DNA of 33,255 nucleotides from a virus (lineage: Duplodnaviria; Heunggongvirae; Uroviricota; Caudoviricetes). Below, in pieces: positions 4,754 through 17,595 of this stretch. The translations under genes were made by a program, and so were the position numbers. Each line of letters begins with the position of its first letter. Positions within the stretch are counted from its first letter, which is position 1. The notes under the pieces were generated by a model. It did no database searches. It was not told the origin of the DNA and saw only the letters and a program-made list of their open reading frames with translations. The stretch lies in the IMG/VR virus record IMGVR_UViG_2737471834_000009; one strand, given 5' to 3'.

Positions 4754-4811
4754 AAAAAGGGCGGCAGAGCAGTCACGGAGTAAAACTGATACCGCCAAAC
4801 GTCACCAGAAA
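4754..4811 (-). ncRNA. dicF: DicF small RNA (ftsZ-targeting sRNA) with intrinsic terminator
   Basis: Minus-strand sequence TTTCTGGTGACGTTTGGCGGTATCAGTTTTACTCCGTGACTGCTCTGCCGCCC followed by a T-run; GGCGG...CCGCC terminator hairpin; located between ydfC and dicB as in the Qin prophage. Confidence 0.8.
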
Positions 4812-7875: not shown

Positions 7876-7946
7876 CTCGCAATATTCATACCGGATCACT
7901 TCCGGCAATTTGTGAGTAAAAAGATTCGGTATCAAAAGAGGTGAGT

Positions 7947-9023
7947 ATGGCTAACGCCTGGCTCAGATTATGGCATGACATGCCAAATGACCCTAAGTGG
8001 CGAACAATTGCCAGGGTGTCAGGGCAGCCAATCGCAACGGTGATGGCGGTTTATGTCCACCTTCTGGTGAGCGCGTCACAAAATGTCACGACATGTCACG
8101 GTGTGTCACGACGAGGTCACGTTGATGTCACGGCAGAAGATTTGGCAAGTGCACTCGACGTGACAGAAGAGGTTATTGATTCAATTTTGCAGGCGATGCA
8201 GGGGCGGGTGCTTGATGGTGATTTAATCACTGGATGGGAAAAACGCCAGGTGTCGAAAGAAGACAATGGCAACATTTCACAAACTGCAAAAACCCCGGCA
8301 GAGCGCAAGAGAGCGCAGCGTGAGAGGGAAAAACAGCGGGAACAAAATGGTGATTGTTGCGGAGAAATATCACGCTATGTCACGGCATGTCACGACGAGT
8401 CACGCATATGTCACGATGAGTCACGACATGTCACGACAGATAAAGATAAAGATCTAAAAGAATTAAACCCCACACATAACGCGCGCGTGCGCGAGAGTGC
8501 TCCGACCAGTAATTCGACAGGCGCACCGTCGCAGACAACGGACCCCGAATACCTGGACGGCCTTAGCGAACCCATCGGGAAATTTCCGATGACTGATGGC
8601 TGGCATCCGTCGCTGGATTTTCGACGACGGGCAGCAGTGTGGGGAGTGTCCCTGCCTGAGCCGGAATTTACACCTGCTGAACTTGCCGCATTCAGGGATT
8701 ACTGGATGGCGGAGGGAAAAGTGTTCACGCAGGTTCAGTGGGAACAGAAATTTGCCCGTCACGTAAATCACGTCAGGGCGCAGGCTAAACCAGTCAGCAA
8801 GGGGGTGAACCATGCAGCAGCACCAGGTGGTACTGCATCACGGGCAGTCCGGGAAATTCGGGCAGCACGTGAACAGTGGGAGCGCGAAAACGGATTTATC
8901 CGCGACGGAAACGGCGTGGAAGCTGTGGGAACTCATGGGGGAGGTTTATTCGAACCGATGGACTCAGAAGAACGGGGCCGCACCGTCGAAACTCTGGATT
9001 GCACAGATTGGCGCGATGACTGA
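7947..9023 (+). CDS. replication initiator, lambda O-like (replisome organizer)
   Basis: N-terminal replisome-organizer-like region; two iteron arrays (TGTCACG repeats) inside the coding sequence followed by an AT-rich stretch; followed by a P-like gene. Confidence 0.8.
   Translation: MANAWLRLWHDMPNDPKWRTIARVSGQPIATVMAVYVHLLVSASQNVTTCHGVSRRGHVDVTAEDLASALDVTEEVIDSILQAMQGRVLDGDLITGWEKRQVSKEDNGNISQTAKTPAERKRAQREREKQREQNGDCCGEISRYVTACHDESRICHDESRHVTTDKDKDLKELNPTHNARVRESAPTSNSTGAPSQTTDPEYLDGLSEPIGKFPMTDGWHPSLDFRRRAAVWGVSLPEPEFTPAELAAFRDYWMAEGKVFTQVQWEQKFARHVNHVRAQAKPVSKGVNHAAAPGGTASRAVREIRAAREQWERENGFIRDGNGVEAVGTHGGGLFEPMDSEERGRTVETLDCTDWRDD
8073..8133. repeat. iteron array 1: five TGTCACG-type repeats at 10-11 bp spacing
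   Basis: Repeats at 8084, 8094, 8104, 8116 and 8126; one inverted copy CGTGACA at 8159-8165. Confidence 0.75.
8369..8470. repeat. iteron array 2 (seven (T)GTCACG repeats) plus adjacent AT-rich region: probable replication origin
   Basis: Repeats at 8369, 8378, 8388, 8399, 8409, 8420 and 8429 with about 10-bp period, followed by AGATAAAGATAAAGATCTAAAAGAATTAAA. Confidence 0.75.
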
Positions 9024-9477
9024 GCAGCAAATCCGGCAGGTCTGCGGACAGTGCATGGACCGTTGCCGGGCGGGTGAAACATGGCCCCCTGACCTGGCTG
9101 AATTTGTGGCGCTGGTTTCGGAAAGCGGAGCCAATCCGTTTGGTCTGACGGTGGATGCCGTGATGGAGGAGTACCGCCGCTGGAGAAATGAATCCTGGCG
9201 ATACGACGGGAGTGATAAATACCCGTGGCCACAGCCTGTGCTGTACCACATTTGCCTTGAGATGCGCACCAGAGGGATTGAACGTCAGATGACCGAAGGG
9301 GAGTTAAAACGACTTGCAGAACGGCAACTGACGAAATGGGCGAAGCATGTTGGTAACGGGATGAGTGTTCCGCCAGTGCGACGACAACTGGAAGGGGCGA
9401 AACACCCGCAAGGGCCAACGCCAATTGAACAACTGAAACAGGAATACGAACGCCGGAAGGCAGCTGGTTTTATTTGA
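8935..9477 (+). CDS. replication protein, lambda P-like (DnaB helicase loader)
   Basis: Collinear similarity to lambda P (WPPDLAEFVALV / YPWPQPVLYHICLEM / MTEGELKRLAERQL versus FLPSPGQFVAWC / YPWKSNAHYWLVTNL / LTDAELRRKAADEL); start uncertain: 8812, 8935 and 9016 are all in frame. Confidence 0.65.
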   Translation: MGEVYSNRWTQKNGAAPSKLWIAQIGAMTEQQIRQVCGQCMDRCRAGETWPPDLAEFVALVSESGANPFGLTVDAVMEEYRRWRNESWRYDGSDKYPWPQPVLYHICLEMRTRGIERQMTEGELKRLAERQLTKWAKHVGNGMSVPPVRRQLEGAKHPQGPTPIEQLKQEYERRKAAGFI

Positions 9478-9510
9478 ATCTGAGAAACGATTTTGTCGGA
9501 GGAAATTTTA

Positions 9511-10236
9511 ATGGAAACCGTATTTGACGCACTGAAAGCACTGAAAAGAGCCTCTTCACAGGTAGTGGCAGCCCGCCTTGGAATCAGCCGTGAAGATGCG
9601 GTCAACGAACTGTGGAAACTGAAGCGTCGTGGGGAAGCTGATAACAAGGGCCCGATGTGGTGGTTGACTCAAACCGACGAAAACGCATCTGTAGCACAGG
9701 CTTCTAAAGTGACAGCGCAAATGCTGATCGAGGCGATTGAACAGCATGGCCCTAAAGCGGCTGATGAACTTGCACTGATATTCAGAATTACTTCCCGCAG
9801 GGTGAACTCATCGCTGGCTATGGCAATCAGCAAAGGGCGTCTGATTCGCGTGAATCAGAACGGTAAATTTCGTTACTGTATGCCGGGCGATAATTTACCG
9901 GCAGAGCCGGAAGCTGCATCCGTAGCGGAAACGGATGGTAAAGCCTTTCCTCAGCCAGCAGGTGTTGCGTTACCAGTCCGGGAAGCGGAAACACAGGAAG
10001 AAATAAAAACGGAAAGTGTGGCGGTCACAGTGCAGTCACAGCCGTCGTTCACCAGAAAACATCCGGATGGTCTGATTTTACCATCGCTGCATGTGGCTAA
10101 CCGCGAGCTGCGCCGGGCAAAAGGTCAGGTTCAGAAGTGGGAGCGTGTCTGCGCCGCGCTGCGGGAGCTGAACAAGCACCGGGATATTGTTCGACATATT
10201 ACGGATTCTTCCCGCCGTGTTGCATCGGAAAAGTGA
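9511..10236 (+). CDS. hypothetical protein with two N-terminal winged-helix-like segments (possibly DUF1627-like)
   Basis: 242-aa ORF, RBS GGAGG 8 nt before the ATG; family assignment tentative and from memory. Confidence 0.6.
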   Translation: METVFDALKALKRASSQVVAARLGISREDAVNELWKLKRRGEADNKGPMWWLTQTDENASVAQASKVTAQMLIEAIEQHGPKAADELALIFRITSRRVNSSLAMAISKGRLIRVNQNGKFRYCMPGDNLPAEPEAASVAETDGKAFPQPAGVALPVREAETQEEIKTESVAVTVQSQPSFTRKHPDGLILPSLHVANRELRRAKGQVQKWERVCAALRELNKHRDIVRHITDSSRRVASEK

Positions 10237-10251
10237 TTGCCGGAGGCGCTT

Positions 10252-10674
10252 ATGGCAAAAGTATTTACACAAGAAGAGCGGGAAAAAATTAAAGGGCAGG
10301 TGGTTGAACTCGTGCGCCAGAGCGGTCGTGAGACGTTACGGCAACTGGAAGCCAAGACAGGTGCGACAAGATATCTGATGAGCGTTCTCGCCAGAGAGCT
10401 GGTTGCCAGTGGCGATGTATATAACTCCGGCTACGGGTTATTCCCGTCAGAACAGGCTCGTAAGGACTGGCAAAATGCCCGCAAAAAACTATCCAGGGCA
10501 AAGGTGAAGAAACCATCTGTGGTTGATCCTGACCTTATCTGGTCATTACCTGACGGAGAAATACGTCGCTACGACAGGAGTATGAACATAATCTGTCACG
10601 AGTGCCGGAAGAGTGAGGTTATGCAGCGTGTACTGGCTTTCTATCAGGGTAATTTTCAGGAGGCGGTACTGTGA
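10252..10674 (+). CDS. hypothetical protein
   Basis: 140-aa ORF starting MAKVFTQEEREKIKGQ with RBS GGAGG; contains CHECRKSE cysteine/histidine motif. Confidence 0.55.
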   Translation: MAKVFTQEEREKIKGQVVELVRQSGRETLRQLEAKTGATRYLMSVLARELVASGDVYNSGYGLFPSEQARKDWQNARKKLSRAKVKKPSVVDPDLIWSLPDGEIRRYDRSMNIICHECRKSEVMQRVLAFYQGNFQEAVL

Positions 10675-10708
10675 GTGAAATTAGCTATCAGGCTTCAATT
10701 ACCGCTGG

Positions 10709-10727
10709 CATTCGCATCAAAGGAGAG
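10709..10727 (+). repeat. junction element copy 1 (CATTCGCATCAAAGGAGAG), carries the RBS
   Basis: Identical 19-mer recurs at 11639-11657 and 12133-12151, each 5-9 nt upstream of a start codon. Confidence 0.8.
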
Positions 10728-10731
10728 GTGC

Positions 10732-11088
10732 ATGGAAATAAAACCAGAAGATGAGTTAAGCAATATCGTTTTATTTCCGGTAAAAGAGGATGACCCTCGT
10801 AATCAGGTTAATTTTCTTTATGAGCCATCGGAAAGACCATATTGCCATCACGCTTCTGTCCGGGTTGACGAAAAAGAGCGTCAGGTCCGCTGTAAAATCT
10901 GCGGTGCAGTTGTGGAGCCATTTGACTGGATGCTCTCTGTGGCGAAAAGAGAAACCAGACTGGCAGATGATGTAAGGCTATTGCGCCAGGAGGAACAGGA
11001 AAGACGGAAAAATATAGAAAAGTTAATTCAGATTGAGCGTAACGCGAAAGCGCGGATACGCAGGGTGACAAAATCCAGAACTGAATAA
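10732..11088 (+). CDS. hypothetical protein (CHH...CxxC motif, basic C-terminus)
   Basis: 118-aa ORF MEIKPEDELSNIVLFPV... preceded by the junction element AAAGGAGAGG. Confidence 0.55.
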   Translation: MEIKPEDELSNIVLFPVKEDDPRNQVNFLYEPSERPYCHHASVRVDEKERQVRCKICGAVVEPFDWMLSVAKRETRLADDVRLLRQEEQERRKNIEKLIQIERNAKARIRRVTKSRTE

Positions 11089-11183
11089 TTAAATTTAGCA
11101 CTGTTAAAAATTCGATCCTTAACCGGAGGGATTTCTGCACCCTCAGAACATCAGGAGGCCGCCCGAAAGGGCGGTAACAAATA

Positions 11184-11660
11184 ATGCAAGAAATCAAAGA
11201 AAATATCAGGCAACAGCTTTACGGGTTTTATATTGCTTATGATTTGTGGCTGAAGAACGGGGCAAAACCCGGCGGAGTGTTTTCTCAAAATTATGGTTTA
11301 TGCGCCAATCTTTTCGATTATCTCACATTAATTGGTACCCCCTGTGAGGCAGCGCTGGAGCAATTACACGCTGATTTCAGAAGTGCCGGGCTGAATGAGG
11401 CGTTGCCGTTTAACGAGGGTAAAGAGCATTACCATGAAGAAAGAGGGCACAACATGTGCCATATGAATCCGGCACGAGTGGCGTGGGTCAGGGCGCAGAC
11501 AGGGCAGCCAGCGCCGGAAGGACTGGTTAAAGCGGTGCGCTTCTATGAACAGGTTAAGCGTGAAAATCCGCCAGTCGAAACCGGAGCATGGAAAGACGCT
11601 GTTGACTGGGTTCTCGAAGAGGCTTGTCAGGCTGTAAACATTCGCATCAAAGGAGAGTGA
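11184..11660 (+). CDS. hypothetical protein ending IRIKGE
   Basis: 158-aa ORF; the last six codons are encoded by junction element copy 2; SD is separated from the ATG by a GAAA-tetraloop hairpin. Confidence 0.6.
   Translation: MQEIKENIRQQLYGFYIAYDLWLKNGAKPGGVFSQNYGLCANLFDYLTLIGTPCEAALEQLHADFRSAGLNEALPFNEGKEHYHEERGHNMCHMNPARVAWVRAQTGQPAPEGLVKAVRFYEQVKRENPPVETGAWKDAVDWVLEEACQAVNIRIKGE
11639..11657 (+). repeat. junction element copy 2 (CATTCGCATCAAAGGAGAG)
   Basis: Encodes the C-terminal IRIKGE of the upstream gene and the RBS of the downstream gene. Confidence 0.8.
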
Positions 11661-11662
11661 GA

Positions 11663-12154
11663 ATGCAAATTTCACCGGTTACTCTTCGTGTTGCGAAGGC
11701 GTTTATATCCAGACATCACCGACACAATAAACCACCTGTTGGGCATAAATTCAGCATTGGTCTGATAAATGATGCCGGAGAATTGATAGGTGTGGCGACA
11801 GCTGGTCGACCTGTTGCACGACATTTGGACGATGGATTAACGCTTGAAGTAAATCGCACATGTACCACAGGAGAACGCAACGCTAACAGCGCGCTTTATG
11901 GTGCTGTCTGGCGAGCAGCAAAAGCTATGGGTTATCAACGTTGTATTACGTACACCCAGGCAGATGAATCAGGAGCATCTCTTCGCGCAGCTGGTTTTGT
12001 TCGTGTGAAAGAGCTTCCTCCAAGAAAAAGCTGGGCGGAATCAAGCGTCGCCTTGCGGAGTAAACGCGATCCGGTCGGAAACGGTGGTGTTCCTCGTGTG
12101 CTCTGGGAAATCAGGAGAATGAGTACCACTGGCATTCGCATCAAAGGAGAGTGA
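11663..12154 (+). CDS. hypothetical protein ending IRIKGE (possible small alpha/beta enzyme-like fold, unassigned)
   Basis: 163-aa ORF MQISPVTLRVAKAFISRHHRHNKPP...; translationally coupled to both neighbours; terminal codons encoded by junction element copy 3. Confidence 0.6.
   Translation: MQISPVTLRVAKAFISRHHRHNKPPVGHKFSIGLINDAGELIGVATAGRPVARHLDDGLTLEVNRTCTTGERNANSALYGAVWRAAKAMGYQRCITYTQADESGASLRAAGFVRVKELPPRKSWAESSVALRSKRDPVGNGGVPRVLWEIRRMSTTGIRIKGE
12133..12151 (+). repeat. junction element copy 3 (CATTCGCATCAAAGGAGAG)
   Basis: Same 19-mer; followed by TGA then ATATG start of the next gene. Confidence 0.8.
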
Positions 12155-12155
12155 T

Positions 12156-12419
12156 ATGGCAACTTTGACAAAAAAGGAACAGGCATGGTTGAGCGAATTA
12201 CAGAACGTTCTTGATCGCTGCCCGTCACCGAAAAAAATTGGTTTTTACACCATTGGCGATAAAAACATTTACCTGTATGACCTACGCCGCATGGATGAAA
12301 TCATGGAGGCTCTTGATAATCGTTCGTCAATGGATTGGTGTGTTGCTGTCCATGATATGAATGCCGGATTTGAAGAAAAGATTTTGTTCCCCTCGTCAGT
12401 TGAAAGCACAGCGGGTTAA
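12156..12419 (+). CDS. hypothetical protein
   Basis: 87-aa ORF immediately after junction element copy 3. Confidence 0.55.
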   Translation: MATLTKKEQAWLSELQNVLDRCPSPKKIGFYTIGDKNIYLYDLRRMDEIMEALDNRSSMDWCVAVHDMNAGFEEKILFPSSVESTAG

Positions 12420-12429
12420 GGAGTAACAC

Positions 12430-13242
12430 ATGACCACTATTACCAAAGAGCGACTGCAATGGCTGGCTAACATTTCTGGCCGTGATGACATTGACGATAT
12501 AGACGGCGGTGAGATTCGTGAACAGGCACGAATTGCTCTGGCAGCGCTGGAAGTCGAGCCGATAGGTTTCCGTTGCAGGCGCAATGATAACCTTGGTGAT
12601 TGGAGTTACGTATATCATCGAGAGCCAGATGATTTTGAGCGCAAACATTTAGTGATAGAGGGCATTTACGCCGCCCCTCCAGCGCCAGTAGTACCGGAAG
12701 AAAAACCAATGCCTAATCCTCTTAGCATGTACGCGGTTGATGCTGTTGCCGCTATTGCAGAGGTGAGAGGCTGGAACGCCTGCCGCGCCGCCATGCTTCA
12801 GTCCGGAAACTTTCGGGAAAACAAGAATTCGTCAACCAATAATTTTCGGGAAATCGCGGAAACGTCAACCAACTCTCCGGTAATTCCTGATGAGGTGTTG
12901 TCCGCAATCCGGGAGGTTGCCAGGATTCGCGCCGATTTCGATGATTTTGACGGTGACAGGCGAGGTATCGGTGATTGTCTGGATGAGGCCGAGCAAGAGC
13001 TTATCGTTACCATTAACAAATATGCCAGTCAGTTGGCAGTAGAGCCGGTAGTACCTGATGACGTTCTGGAACAGACAGTAGCGTCGCCCGCGCCAGGTAA
13101 CCAGGTTAGCGAATTAACAATGTGGGTTAAGCGTCTGGCTCACTCCTTAAAGTACGCCAATAGCTTAAGCAGCTTGCCTGATAAGGCGATGGAGTATCTG
13201 AATCAGAATGGGCTGATAAGTGTGGAGGATGTTTTACGATGA
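12430..13242 (+). CDS. hypothetical acidic protein (possibly Ea22-like; unassigned)
   Basis: 270-aa ORF, acidic with D/E-rich segments, RBS AAGGAG before the ATG. Confidence 0.6.
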   Translation: MTTITKERLQWLANISGRDDIDDIDGGEIREQARIALAALEVEPIGFRCRRNDNLGDWSYVYHREPDDFERKHLVIEGIYAAPPAPVVPEEKPMPNPLSMYAVDAVAAIAEVRGWNACRAAMLQSGNFRENKNSSTNNFREIAETSTNSPVIPDEVLSAIREVARIRADFDDFDGDRRGIGDCLDEAEQELIVTINKYASQLAVEPVVPDDVLEQTVASPAPGNQVSELTMWVKRLAHSLKYANSLSSLPDKAMEYLNQNGLISVEDVLR

Positions 13243-13322
13243 TCTGGCCTGAGGCATTCACAACGGCAGGAATCGCGATGGCGGTGGCGCTGGTGGTGTA
13301 TTCGATTTGCCGTTGGGGTTAA
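13239..13322 (+). CDS. possible 27-aa hydrophobic peptide, translationally coupled to the upstream gene
   Basis: ATGA overlap with the upstream stop; product MIWPEAFTTAGIAMAVALVVYSICRWG; strong terminator immediately downstream. Confidence 0.3.
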   Translation: MIWPEAFTTAGIAMAVALVVYSICRWG

Positions 13323-13330
13323 CAAACAAA

Positions 13331-13358
13331 AACCCCGGATTGATGGTCCGGGGTTTTT
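13331..13358 (+). terminator. intrinsic terminator (CCCCGGA-loop-TCCGGGG followed by T5)
   Basis: Perfect 7-bp stem with a T-run; A-run upstream, so it may act in both directions. Confidence 0.7.
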
Positions 13359-13639
13359 GAAGGAAACAAAACAGAAACAACAATTGCCGTTACCTGTTGT
13401 TACCATGGCAAGTAAACGTATCTCAGGCGAGCGCATTGCGCCGTTCTGACGCAGATAAATTAGCCTGGATAGAAGGTGCTGGCAATAAAAAATAGCGTTT
13501 TCTTATCGGTGTCGGTAAGATTGCTGCGGGTGCTTGAGGCTGTCTGCCTCAGGCATGCCACTGTAAGGCAGACAGAGAAAAGCCCCAGTTAACATTATGC
13601 GTCCGGCAAGACGCTTAACATTAATCTGAGGCTCAATCT

Positions 13640-13852
13640 ATGAACGGCAAATCTAGGTTAGCCTCTTACGCGCCGAAAGGCAAGGAGAAGCAGGCTATGA
13701 AGCAGCAAAAGGCGATGTTAGTCGCCCTGATCGTCATCTGTATTACCGTCATTGTGACGGCACTGGTAACGAGGAAAGACCTCTGCGAGGTACGAATCCG
13801 AACCGGCCAGACGGAGGTCACTGTCTTCACAGCTTACGAACCTGAGGAGTAA
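13640..13852 (+). CDS. Mok-like reading frame (in-frame N-terminal extension of Hok)
   Basis: 70-aa ORF containing the hok frame, as in chromosomal mok/hok loci. Confidence 0.55.
   Translation: MNGKSRLASYAPKGKEKQAMKQQKAMLVALIVICITVIVTALVTRKDLCEVRIRTGQTEVTVFTAYEPEE
13697..13852 (+). CDS. hok: Hok/Gef family type I toxin
   Basis: 51-aa product MKQQKAMLVALIVICITVIVTALVTRKDLCEVRIRTGQTEVTVFTAYEPEE is near-identical to remembered HokD/RelF; mRNA leader has the tac-like hairpin GCTTGAGGCTGTCTGCCTCAGG. Confidence 0.85.
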   Translation: MKQQKAMLVALIVICITVIVTALVTRKDLCEVRIRTGQTEVTVFTAYEPEE

Positions 13853-17285: not shown

Positions 17286-17361
17286 GGCCCTTTAGCTCAG
17301 TGGTGAGAGCGAGCGACTCATAATCGCCAGGTCGCTGGTTCAAATCCAGCAAGGGCCACCA
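17286..17361 (+). tRNA. tRNA, anticodon CAU (ileX/ileZ-like tRNA-Ile2; tRNA-Met not excluded)
   Basis: Manual cloverleaf: acceptor GGCCCTT/AAGGGCC, anticodon loop CTCATAA, T-loop TTCAAAT, CCA encoded; close to remembered ileX. Confidence 0.8.
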
Positions 17362-17362
17362 A

Positions 17363-17439
17363 CCGCCACTAGCTCATCAGGAAAGAGCGTCAACCCTTTA
17401 AGTTGAGTGTGCGAGGTTCGAGTCCCCGGTGGCGGTCCA
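17363..17439 (+). tRNA. atypical tRNA, anticodon loop CCTTTAA (anticodon UUU, Lys-like, with C at position 33)
   Basis: Manual cloverleaf: acceptor CCGCCAC/GTGGCGG (C1-G72), D-loop with GG, T-loop TTCGAGT, CCA encoded; isotype uncertain. Confidence 0.55.
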
Positions 17440-17441
17440 GT

Positions 17442-17517
<76 letters not shown>

Positions 17518-17520
17518 TAT

Positions 17521-17595
<75 letters not shown>

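Follow-up and report, generated by a model that had tools for sequence, protein, structure and literature searches.

Two of the genes described here have their closest known counterparts in phage Mu and phage lambda. The lambda ren gene is needed for escape from Rex exclusion. The Mom protein of Mu (PF25680; PDB 8BV8) is a Gly-tRNA(Gly)-dependent N6-adenine carbamoylmethyl transferase, whose dependence on tRNA was worked out recently (PMC13219725). We analysed a 33,255-nucleotide stretch of viral DNA (IMG/VR record IMGVR_UViG_2737471834_000009; the whole stretch is referred to below as the window), which by gene order and profile matches is a Qin/Rac-type lambdoid prophage of Escherichia coli. 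Seven consecutive open reading frames (ORFs), ORF1 to ORF7, are tightly packed on its + strand between the P-like gene and a strong terminator (9511-13242), and code for polypeptides of 241, 140, 118, 158, 163, 87 and 270 amino acids (aa), respectively. An earlier inspection of the letters, called here the sequence-only reading, had described this block at the same positions as uncharacterised nin-region genes and candidate accessory or counter-defence cargo, and the arrangement was confirmed. ORF starts were set by Shine-Dalgarno (SD) context and RefSeq homologues. Because each ORF has strong family or homologue matches all seven are, as judged from sequence, real genes. The explanation that we propose, and that we hold to be somewhat probable, is that the block is a mosaic segment of early accessory genes whose Mom-related ORF5, the only predicted enzyme of the block, would modify nucleic acid.

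ORF5 (11663-12154, + strand) matched the NCBIfam equivalog family XF1762 (NF045478) with 204.1 bits (cutoff 50, E-value (E) 8e-61) and phrog_1384, 'Mom-like DNA modification protein', with E 9e-43; RefSeq and PHROG already apply this label to the ORF5 family. The polypeptide has an isoelectric point (pI) of 10.7, and the family contains many invariant arginines. The AlphaFold2 (AF2) model (predicted local distance difference test, pLDDT, 89.7) has GNAT topology. The solved structure nearest to it was Mu Mom, with generic acetyltransferases nearly tied. Mom (PF25680) was also the only Pfam family matched by XF1762 members (33 of 42). In hhalign and BLAST alignments H19, R65 and S76 of ORF5 stood opposite H58, R111 and S124 of Mom (hhalign E 0.025), a mapping that depends on the identity of the motifs E-x-N-R and R-N-x-x-S. 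In the family alignment these three residues were kept in 41, 42 and 39 of the 42 sequences, respectively. R111 and S124 are catalytic residues of Mom. R111 is conserved among Mom homologues, not across GNATs generally (PMC7261163). Since direct BLASTP between ORF5 and Mom was weak (E 0.08), and a single-sequence search of PDB with ORF5 returned no sequence relative, the link between the two proteins rests on profiles and structure.

A GNAT fold would also suit an enzyme that acylates some other target, be it aminoacyl-tRNA, as with the TacT/AtaT toxins, a host protein or a small molecule, with host shut-off, persistence or abortive infection as the outcome. We regard this as unlikely for ORF5. 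The near tie of generic acetyltransferases with Mom in the structure comparison speaks for it, as do the absence of Mom's DNA-binding helix-turn-helix (HTH)-like insertion and a basic surface that suits tRNA as well as DNA. The length fits too: 163 aa, the size of ORF5, is typical of GNAT toxins. However, inspection of the family alignment between strand 4 and helix 3 revealed no acetyl-coenzyme A (acetyl-CoA) loop of the form Q/R-x-x-G-x-G/A, the Mom-specific arginine is invariant, and no acetyltransferase family in Pfam was matched.

The XF1762 family is very large: clustering at 90% identity gives 5658 clusters, and at 50% identity 3323 representatives remain. Homologues across Enterobacterales are 74-86% identical to ORF5, and those in Mycobacterium prophages and in the genomes of Streptomyces and Amycolatopsis 50-63%. 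Members at 50-60% identity also occur in temperate phages whose hosts are Proteobacteria, Actinobacteria or Cyanobacteria. Such conservation across phyla (about 55% between E.coli and Mycobacterium/Streptomyces elements) is unusually high for cargo of mobile elements. In the literature no paper mentions the family, and it has no published function. XF1762 domains occur fused to D12 N6-adenine and to C5-cytosine DNA methylases, to a PAPS-reductase domain and to the polyvalent-protein domains YodL and LPD28; further fusions involve DUF6884, a recombinase fragment and, once, a beta-lactamase-fold domain. The last of these counts for a target other than DNA, whereas the fusions to two classes of DNA methylases, together with co-location with methyltransferases, count against it. 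The actinobacterial loci were searched with a 12-sequence XF1762 alignment and, as ORF calling is noisy in this GC-rich DNA, only Pfam-confirmed neighbours were used. The XF1762 gene was flanked there by a TraG/VirD4-type coupling protein (16 loci) and by a large serine recombinase (15 loci), and it sometimes lay near an N6/N4 DNA methylase. These neighbours indicate that conjugative elements, and not prophages only, carry XF1762 as cargo.

The position of ORF5 in the prophage also has a bearing on its function. Seven E.coli prophages sharing the DUF977 gene (ORF2 in the window) were sampled, and the slot that follows this gene was compared. One carried a TRM11-family methyltransferase plus a DNA methyltransferase, another a methyltransferase remnant plus QueH (epoxyqueuosine reductase), a third QueH alone, a fourth an AIPR abortive-infection (Abi) protein, and a fifth a class I S-adenosylmethionine (SAM) methyltransferase plus two Ead/Ea22-like proteins; the remaining two had small hypothetical genes only. 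hokD followed the slot in five of the seven. Given the methyltransferases, QueH and AIPR found in the sampled prophages, the slot is a hot spot of genes that modify nucleic acids or are related to conflict.

The architecture of the block shows how its content can change. An 18-mer, ATTCGCATCAAAGGAGAG, is present in three exact copies, against 0.02 expected by chance, and each copy lies just 5' of a start codon. The first (10710-10727, + strand) is in the ORF2-ORF3 spacer and gives the SD sequence of ORF3. The second (11640-11657, + strand) and the third (12134-12151, + strand) encode the terminal hexapeptide IRIKGE of the upstream gene, that is, the last six residues of ORF4 and of ORF5, and at the same time provide the SD sequences of ORF5 and ORF6, respectively. 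Such a junction combines the final codons and the stop codon of one gene with the ribosome-binding site for the gene downstream. At least 120 stretches of viral contigs contain the same 18-mer; in these, at least 8 unrelated ORFs terminate at it and at least 12 unrelated genes follow it. Since it joins so many unrelated genes on both sides, the 18-mer is a promiscuous gene-boundary cassette junction. Short conserved boundary ('linker') sequences of this kind have reportedly long been proposed for module exchange in lambdoid phages, from comparisons of HK620, HK97 and P22.

The neighbourhood of ORF5 homologues was examined in 81 loci (80 viral contigs and one RefSeq locus). Full-length ORF4 was upstream in 6 of the 81, its C-terminal module alone in about 29, and no similar sequence in the others; ORF6 was downstream in 39 of the 80 viral loci. 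Among 5426 complete E.coli genomes parts of the block were matched in 4448, and at least 80% of the 4-kb block in only 4. These results showed that the block consists of independently exchangeable gene cassettes butted together by short junctions, and the suggestion of variable cargo made by the sequence-only reading was strongly supported by the changing neighbours and slot content. The same reading had taken 11184-12154 (ORF4 and ORF5) for a translationally coupled pair. The spacing agrees with this, for the gap is 2 nt and the SD sequence of ORF5 is within the last codons of ORF4, but the two do not form a conserved functional pair. Equally tight packing was seen between ORF5 and ORF6 (1-nt gap) and between ORF7 and a 27-aa ORF (ATGA overlap). 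ORF4-ORF5 and ORF5-ORF6 were also considered as toxin-antitoxin or other obligate partners and rejected, as the neighbours vary; neither ORF4 nor ORF6 matched an antitoxin family in Pfam or NCBIfam. ORF5 differs from the toxins of GNAT-ribbon-helix-helix type II systems (TacAT/AtaRT type) in its varying flanks and in lacking the acetyl-CoA P-loop motif. With both flanks variable, no conserved neighbour offers itself as an antitoxin, which is a further point against ORF5 being a toxin of this kind.

The block seems to lack a convincing promoter of its own. A scan of the + strand from 9000 to 13300 found one weak promoter-like site only; overall such sites were no commoner than in shuffled sequences, and the scan total was under the shuffle mean. 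At its end the block is closed by a bidirectional-looking intrinsic terminator (13327-13359; 15-bp stem, dG -24 kcal/mol, with an A-run and a U-run at the flanks). Because of these two features the block would most likely be transcribed, upon induction or infection, as part of the early rightward operon. This bears on the idea that the genes are defence or superinfection-exclusion morons, expressed in the lysogen and guarding the host against other phages. The AIPR abortive-infection gene in the slot of a sister prophage is in favour of this idea, and so is the hok/sok type I toxin-antitoxin locus (13528-13852, with sok, RF01794, at 13528-13702) directly past the terminator. In lambda the repressor keeps the early operon silent in the lysogen, so that genes tightly packed in the sense of this operon, with no convincing sigma-70 promoter inside the block, should be silent there. 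Moreover, a PADLOC-DB 2.0 scan with the seven products and three neighbours gave nothing significant (the sole listed match, of ORF1, had 13.7 bits). We find a moron function quite improbable.

ORF1 and ORF2, the genes next to the replication module, suggest another role. ORF1 (9511-10236, + strand), a basic protein (pI 9.65), matched PF07789 (DUF1627) with E 1e-83 (279 bits, cutoff 28.1) and phrog_630 with E 8e-117; its homologue is named 'YdaW' in Rac phage records. The DUF1627 profile covers its C-terminal part, and the N-terminal half has weak winged-helix matches (FeoC/MarR-type; PDB 2d1h). ORF2 (10252-10674, + strand), also basic, is a DUF977 protein (gene name 'LygF') matching PF06163 with E 4e-31 (108 bits, cutoff 22.1) and, over the full profile, phrog_142 'Ren-like exclusion protein' with E 8e-48. 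In direct comparison with lambda Ren only the C-terminal 22 residues could be aligned, with 55% identity (pairwise E 1e-6). ORF1 and ORF2 show no mutual similarity, and were thus rejected as paralogues. DUF977 is a winged-helix domain according to Kinch et al. (PMC2686095); of the two winged-helix-like proteins proposed from the sequence, ORF2 is therefore borne out, and ORF1 has weak matches only. In the literature nothing functional was found on DUF1627, whose only mention is as a synteny marker for Pas small RNAs (sRNAs), and nothing functional on DUF977 or 'LygF' beyond the winged-helix assignment, LygF being a gene name only. No paper was found that ties these families to anti-defence.

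ORF2 is the conserved gene after the replication module in Qin/Rac-type prophages, and the DUF977 gene was present in 4091 of the 5426 complete E.coli genomes (75%), in up to 6 copies per genome. ORF1 and ORF2 directly follow the replication genes whichever type these are, P-like, DnaC/YdaV-like or O-only. This constant position, and the winged-helix features, would suit regulatory or replication-accessory factors of phage development, winged-helix and zinc-ribbon DNA binders for instance, or modular proteins that bias the lysis-lysogeny choice like Ea22 of lambda; the block would then be unrelated to host defences. Lambda Ea22 was reported to be pro-lysogenic (PMC7093339, PMC10834534), which, with the modules that ORF4 and ORF7 have in common with Ead/Ea22-like proteins and with the PADLOC result, was counted in favour of a developmental role. 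ORF4 and ORF7 do not, however, carry the Ead_Ea22 domain itself. The extreme presence/absence variation of ORF3-ORF7, the methyltransferases, QueH and Abi protein occupying the slot elsewhere, and the membership of ORF5, an enzyme, in the Mom lineage do not agree with such a role for the block either. We consider a purely developmental block possible but rather doubtful.

The explanation preferred here, a mosaic early accessory segment with a nucleic-acid-modifying ORF5, can be put as follows. Within the nin region (P to Q) of a Qin/Rac-type lambdoid prophage, the block is the promoter-proximal accessory segment, and it is highly mosaic. ORF5 would use a donor other than CoA, perhaps an aminoacyl-tRNA as Mom does, to place an acyl or aminoacyl group on nucleic acid. 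The target would most likely be the DNA of the replicating phage, which would then be shielded from restriction when the next host is entered. ORF2, for its part, may work in the manner of Ren, by which lambda escapes Rex exclusion.

Several observations weigh against this explanation. The match of ORF5 to PF25680 (23.5-23.8 bits) was under the gathering cutoff of 27.1 and covered profile positions 2-124 of 202 only. Mom Y59 stood opposite an invariant arginine (R20) of ORF5, and by eye no equivalents of Mom D149, R151 and Y159 were evident, all four being important or essential in Mom; the region after strand 5 was left unaligned by every tool, and E102 and G104 were found there by eye to be (near-)invariant. 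The HTH-like insertion (Mom residues 175-209) is missing from the 163 aa of ORF5, whose AF2 model has a 26-residue loop of pLDDT 61-65 between strands 6 and 7, and deletion of this insertion abolished momylation in Mom (PMC13219725). Some of the XF1762 fusions may result from gene-calling errors in metagenomic data. For Mom, which is toxic, expression is late and tightly controlled, whereas ORF5 is in the early operon. No functional leads were obtained for ORF1, ORF3, ORF4, ORF6 and ORF7, and the PADLOC null result has to be added. The direct similarity of ORF2 to Ren is limited to 22 residues, and we know of no established mechanism for lambda Ren itself.

In our reading of the alignments and the model, ORF5 is probably a distinct compact sister of Mom, not a Mom orthologue, and can be predicted to be a nucleic-acid acyl or aminoacyl transferase. 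The fusions, the slot content and the basic charge favour a nucleic-acid substrate and an anti-restriction role, although this is association, not proof. Of the counter-defence role proposed for the whole block, what stood is a plausible case for ORF5, through its relation to Mom, and a weak one for the Ren-like ORF2; the suggestion found no support for the other five genes. A bolder version is that XF1762 is a separate minimal branch of the Mom lineage, which uses a non-CoA donor (e.g. aminoacyl-tRNA) and makes an undescribed modification of DNA (or tRNA) without the HTH insertion. We offer it tentatively, as a speculation that is unlikely to hold.

The remaining genes of the block are ORF3, ORF4, ORF6 and ORF7, of which ORF4 and ORF7 are mosaic. 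ORF3 (10732-11088, + strand) matched phrog_1621 with E 2e-55. It is the CHH/CxxC protein of the sequence-only reading, and has the zinc-ribbon-like motif C37-H38-H39 ... C54-x-x-C57; the match to Zn_Ribbon_TF (TFIIB zinc ribbon) was sub-threshold (E 2e-4). Its charged C-terminal tail looks helical or coiled-coil on inspection of the sequence. A GC-rich hairpin (11158-11175, + strand; 7 bp, GAAA loop, dG -15.5 kcal/mol) lies between an AGGAGG sequence and the start codon of ORF4. It travels with the 3' flank of ORF3, also in loci without the N-terminal domain of ORF4, and could act in RNA stability or processing, or serve to bring the SD sequence nearer to the start codon.

ORF4 (11184-11660, + strand) was resolved by the homologue table and alignment into domain A (residues ~1-108) and module B (~110-158, ending with IRIKGE). 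Module B is common to Ead/Ea22-like proteins, including carriers of PF13935. A tblastn search with domain A (window 11184-11507) found 28-42% identical homologues in 245 phage records. Among the carriers of the domain were virulent phages, both rV5-like 150-kb myoviruses, with several copies per genome, and N4-like podoviruses, in several of which it lay within the first few kb of the record; the annotation was 'hypothetical' in all records listed. In the word-indexed database the N-terminal domain had few diverse homologues. ORF4 had no Pfam match at all, and its AF2 model was poor (pLDDT 60, predicted template-modelling score 0.49) and unfit for a fold search. Matches of the ORF4 profile to designer PPR proteins in PDB were discarded as summed sub-threshold repeat matches.

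ORF6 (12156-12419, + strand) is a small acidic protein (pI 4.84) that matched phrog_1714 with E 2e-50. Prophages without an XF1762 gene carry 264-nt (87-aa) hypothetical genes, which are presumed, unaligned homologues of ORF6. ORF7 (12430-13242, + strand) is the 270-aa acidic protein noticed earlier (pI 4.59). It is composed of an N-terminal module ('MTTITKERL'), a middle module and a C-terminal module (ELTMWVKRL...VEDVLR), each of which recurs in other combinations, and over different segments it matched 11 different PHROGs. The C-terminal module is fused behind ORF4 domain A in 210-aa relatives, and fragments of ORF7 homologues are labelled 'DUF551' by RefSeq. The Ead_Ea22 domain (PF13935) was matched in Pfam by neither ORF4 nor ORF7. 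The hydrophobic 27-aa ORF MIWPEAFTTAGIAMAVALVVYSICRWG (13239-13322, + strand), whose ATG overlaps the ORF7 stop codon, lies just 5' of the terminator. In about 25 loci it follows ORF7-type C-termini and is conserved there (63-100% identity), and it lacks annotation in the RefSeq genomes checked.

The spacers from ORF1 to ORF7 are, in order, 15, 57, 95, 2, 1 and 10 nt. From left to right the window contains DicF, a repressor/Cro-like pair, a YdaT-family gene, an O-like gene with a DnaT domain (7941-9023), the P-like gene (8812-9477; PF06992, E 6e-16), which adjoins the block upstream, and the block; after it come the terminator, hok/sok, DUF968, RusA, Q, four tRNAs and further large ORFs. The DicF sRNA is in the left arm (4759-4810, - strand), and the four-tRNA cluster (17286-17592) is just 3' of the Q-like gene. 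As listed, the O-like ORF and the P-like ORF have about 210 nt in common. In RefSeq homologues P starts about 190 nt later (157 aa) and overlaps O by a few codons only. The P-domain match in Pfam, however, extends slightly 5' of this position, which makes the start of the P-like gene uncertain.

A Rfam scan matched no RNA families within the block, and PDB sequence searches with ORF1, ORF2, ORF3, ORF4, ORF6 and ORF7 gave no significant relative. None of the seven products matched the lambda Nin families (NinA-NinI: Orf, Rap, phosphatase and others) in Pfam or PHROG, so that the block is not simply made up of known nin-region or replication-accessory housekeeping families, the outcome that would have spoken against accessory cargo. 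The profile comparisons called for at the outset did find families, and the defence-database comparison added nothing significant. It was thus too strong to say that the seven genes cannot be assigned, as four of them fall in named families. 'Uncharacterised' was likewise overstated, for these proteins are already covered by DUF1627, DUF977, XF1762 and several PHROGs. Every gene of the block is in a catalogued, uncharacterised family, and the block is one more ordinary example of a type of region already known.

As a whole, the block shows lambdoid prophages keeping a shuffling bin of early accessory genes, and in this respect adds little beyond existing annotation. Two points go further. XF1762 has key residues of Mom in a smaller scaffold, placed where other elements carry DNA methylases, and the substrate of ORF5 would tell whether anti-restriction by Mom-type chemistry is widespread or a speciality of Mu. 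If XF1762 were indeed a minimal Mom branch, it could give broad restriction protection to the prophages and conjugative elements that carry it, which range from those of Enterobacteria to those of Streptomyces and to cyanophages. The 18-nt junction is a concrete, testable substrate for cassette swapping.

Compared with the known systems, ORF5 resembles Mom in the GNAT fold and in the equivalents of H58, R111 and S124. It differs in size (163 aa versus 231/241), in lacking the HTH-like insertion that is essential in Mom, and in that equivalents of Y59, D149, R151 and Y159 are absent or unclear. Mu mom is a late gene controlled by the zinc-finger translational activator Com, and com overlaps mom, whereas ORF5 is in the early operon and the gene upstream of it is variable and without Pfam match. 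The product of Mom is N6-carbamoylmethyl-dA; for ORF5 a modification is predicted only. The orphan methyltransferases and QueH of sister prophages share with ORF5 the slot between DUF977 and hokD and a presumed role in nucleic-acid modification, but as their folds and chemistry are unrelated the analogy is positional only. ORF2 is in the same PHROG (142) as lambda Ren, is similar to it over the C-terminal 22 residues, and has a comparable place after the replication genes. It is longer (140 versus 96 aa), with no direct similarity in the remaining sequence, and is separated from P by the DUF1627 gene, whereas ren immediately follows P in lambda. The Ead/Ea22 proteins (PF13935; lambda Ea22) have in common with ORF4 the C-terminal module, and the modules of ORF7 recombine with ORF4 domain A in a cluster that holds RefSeq ead/Ea22-like or DUF551 proteins; however, ORF4 and ORF7 are without the Ead_Ea22 domain and are placed in the nin instead of the exo-xis region. 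Finally, although it is without NinA-NinI, and its junction also encodes the C-terminal hexapeptide IRIKGE, the block shares with the lambdoid nin region the P-to-Q position, tight overlapping genes, internal terminators, mosaic joints exactly at gene boundaries, and an 18-nt junction common to many unrelated gene pairs.

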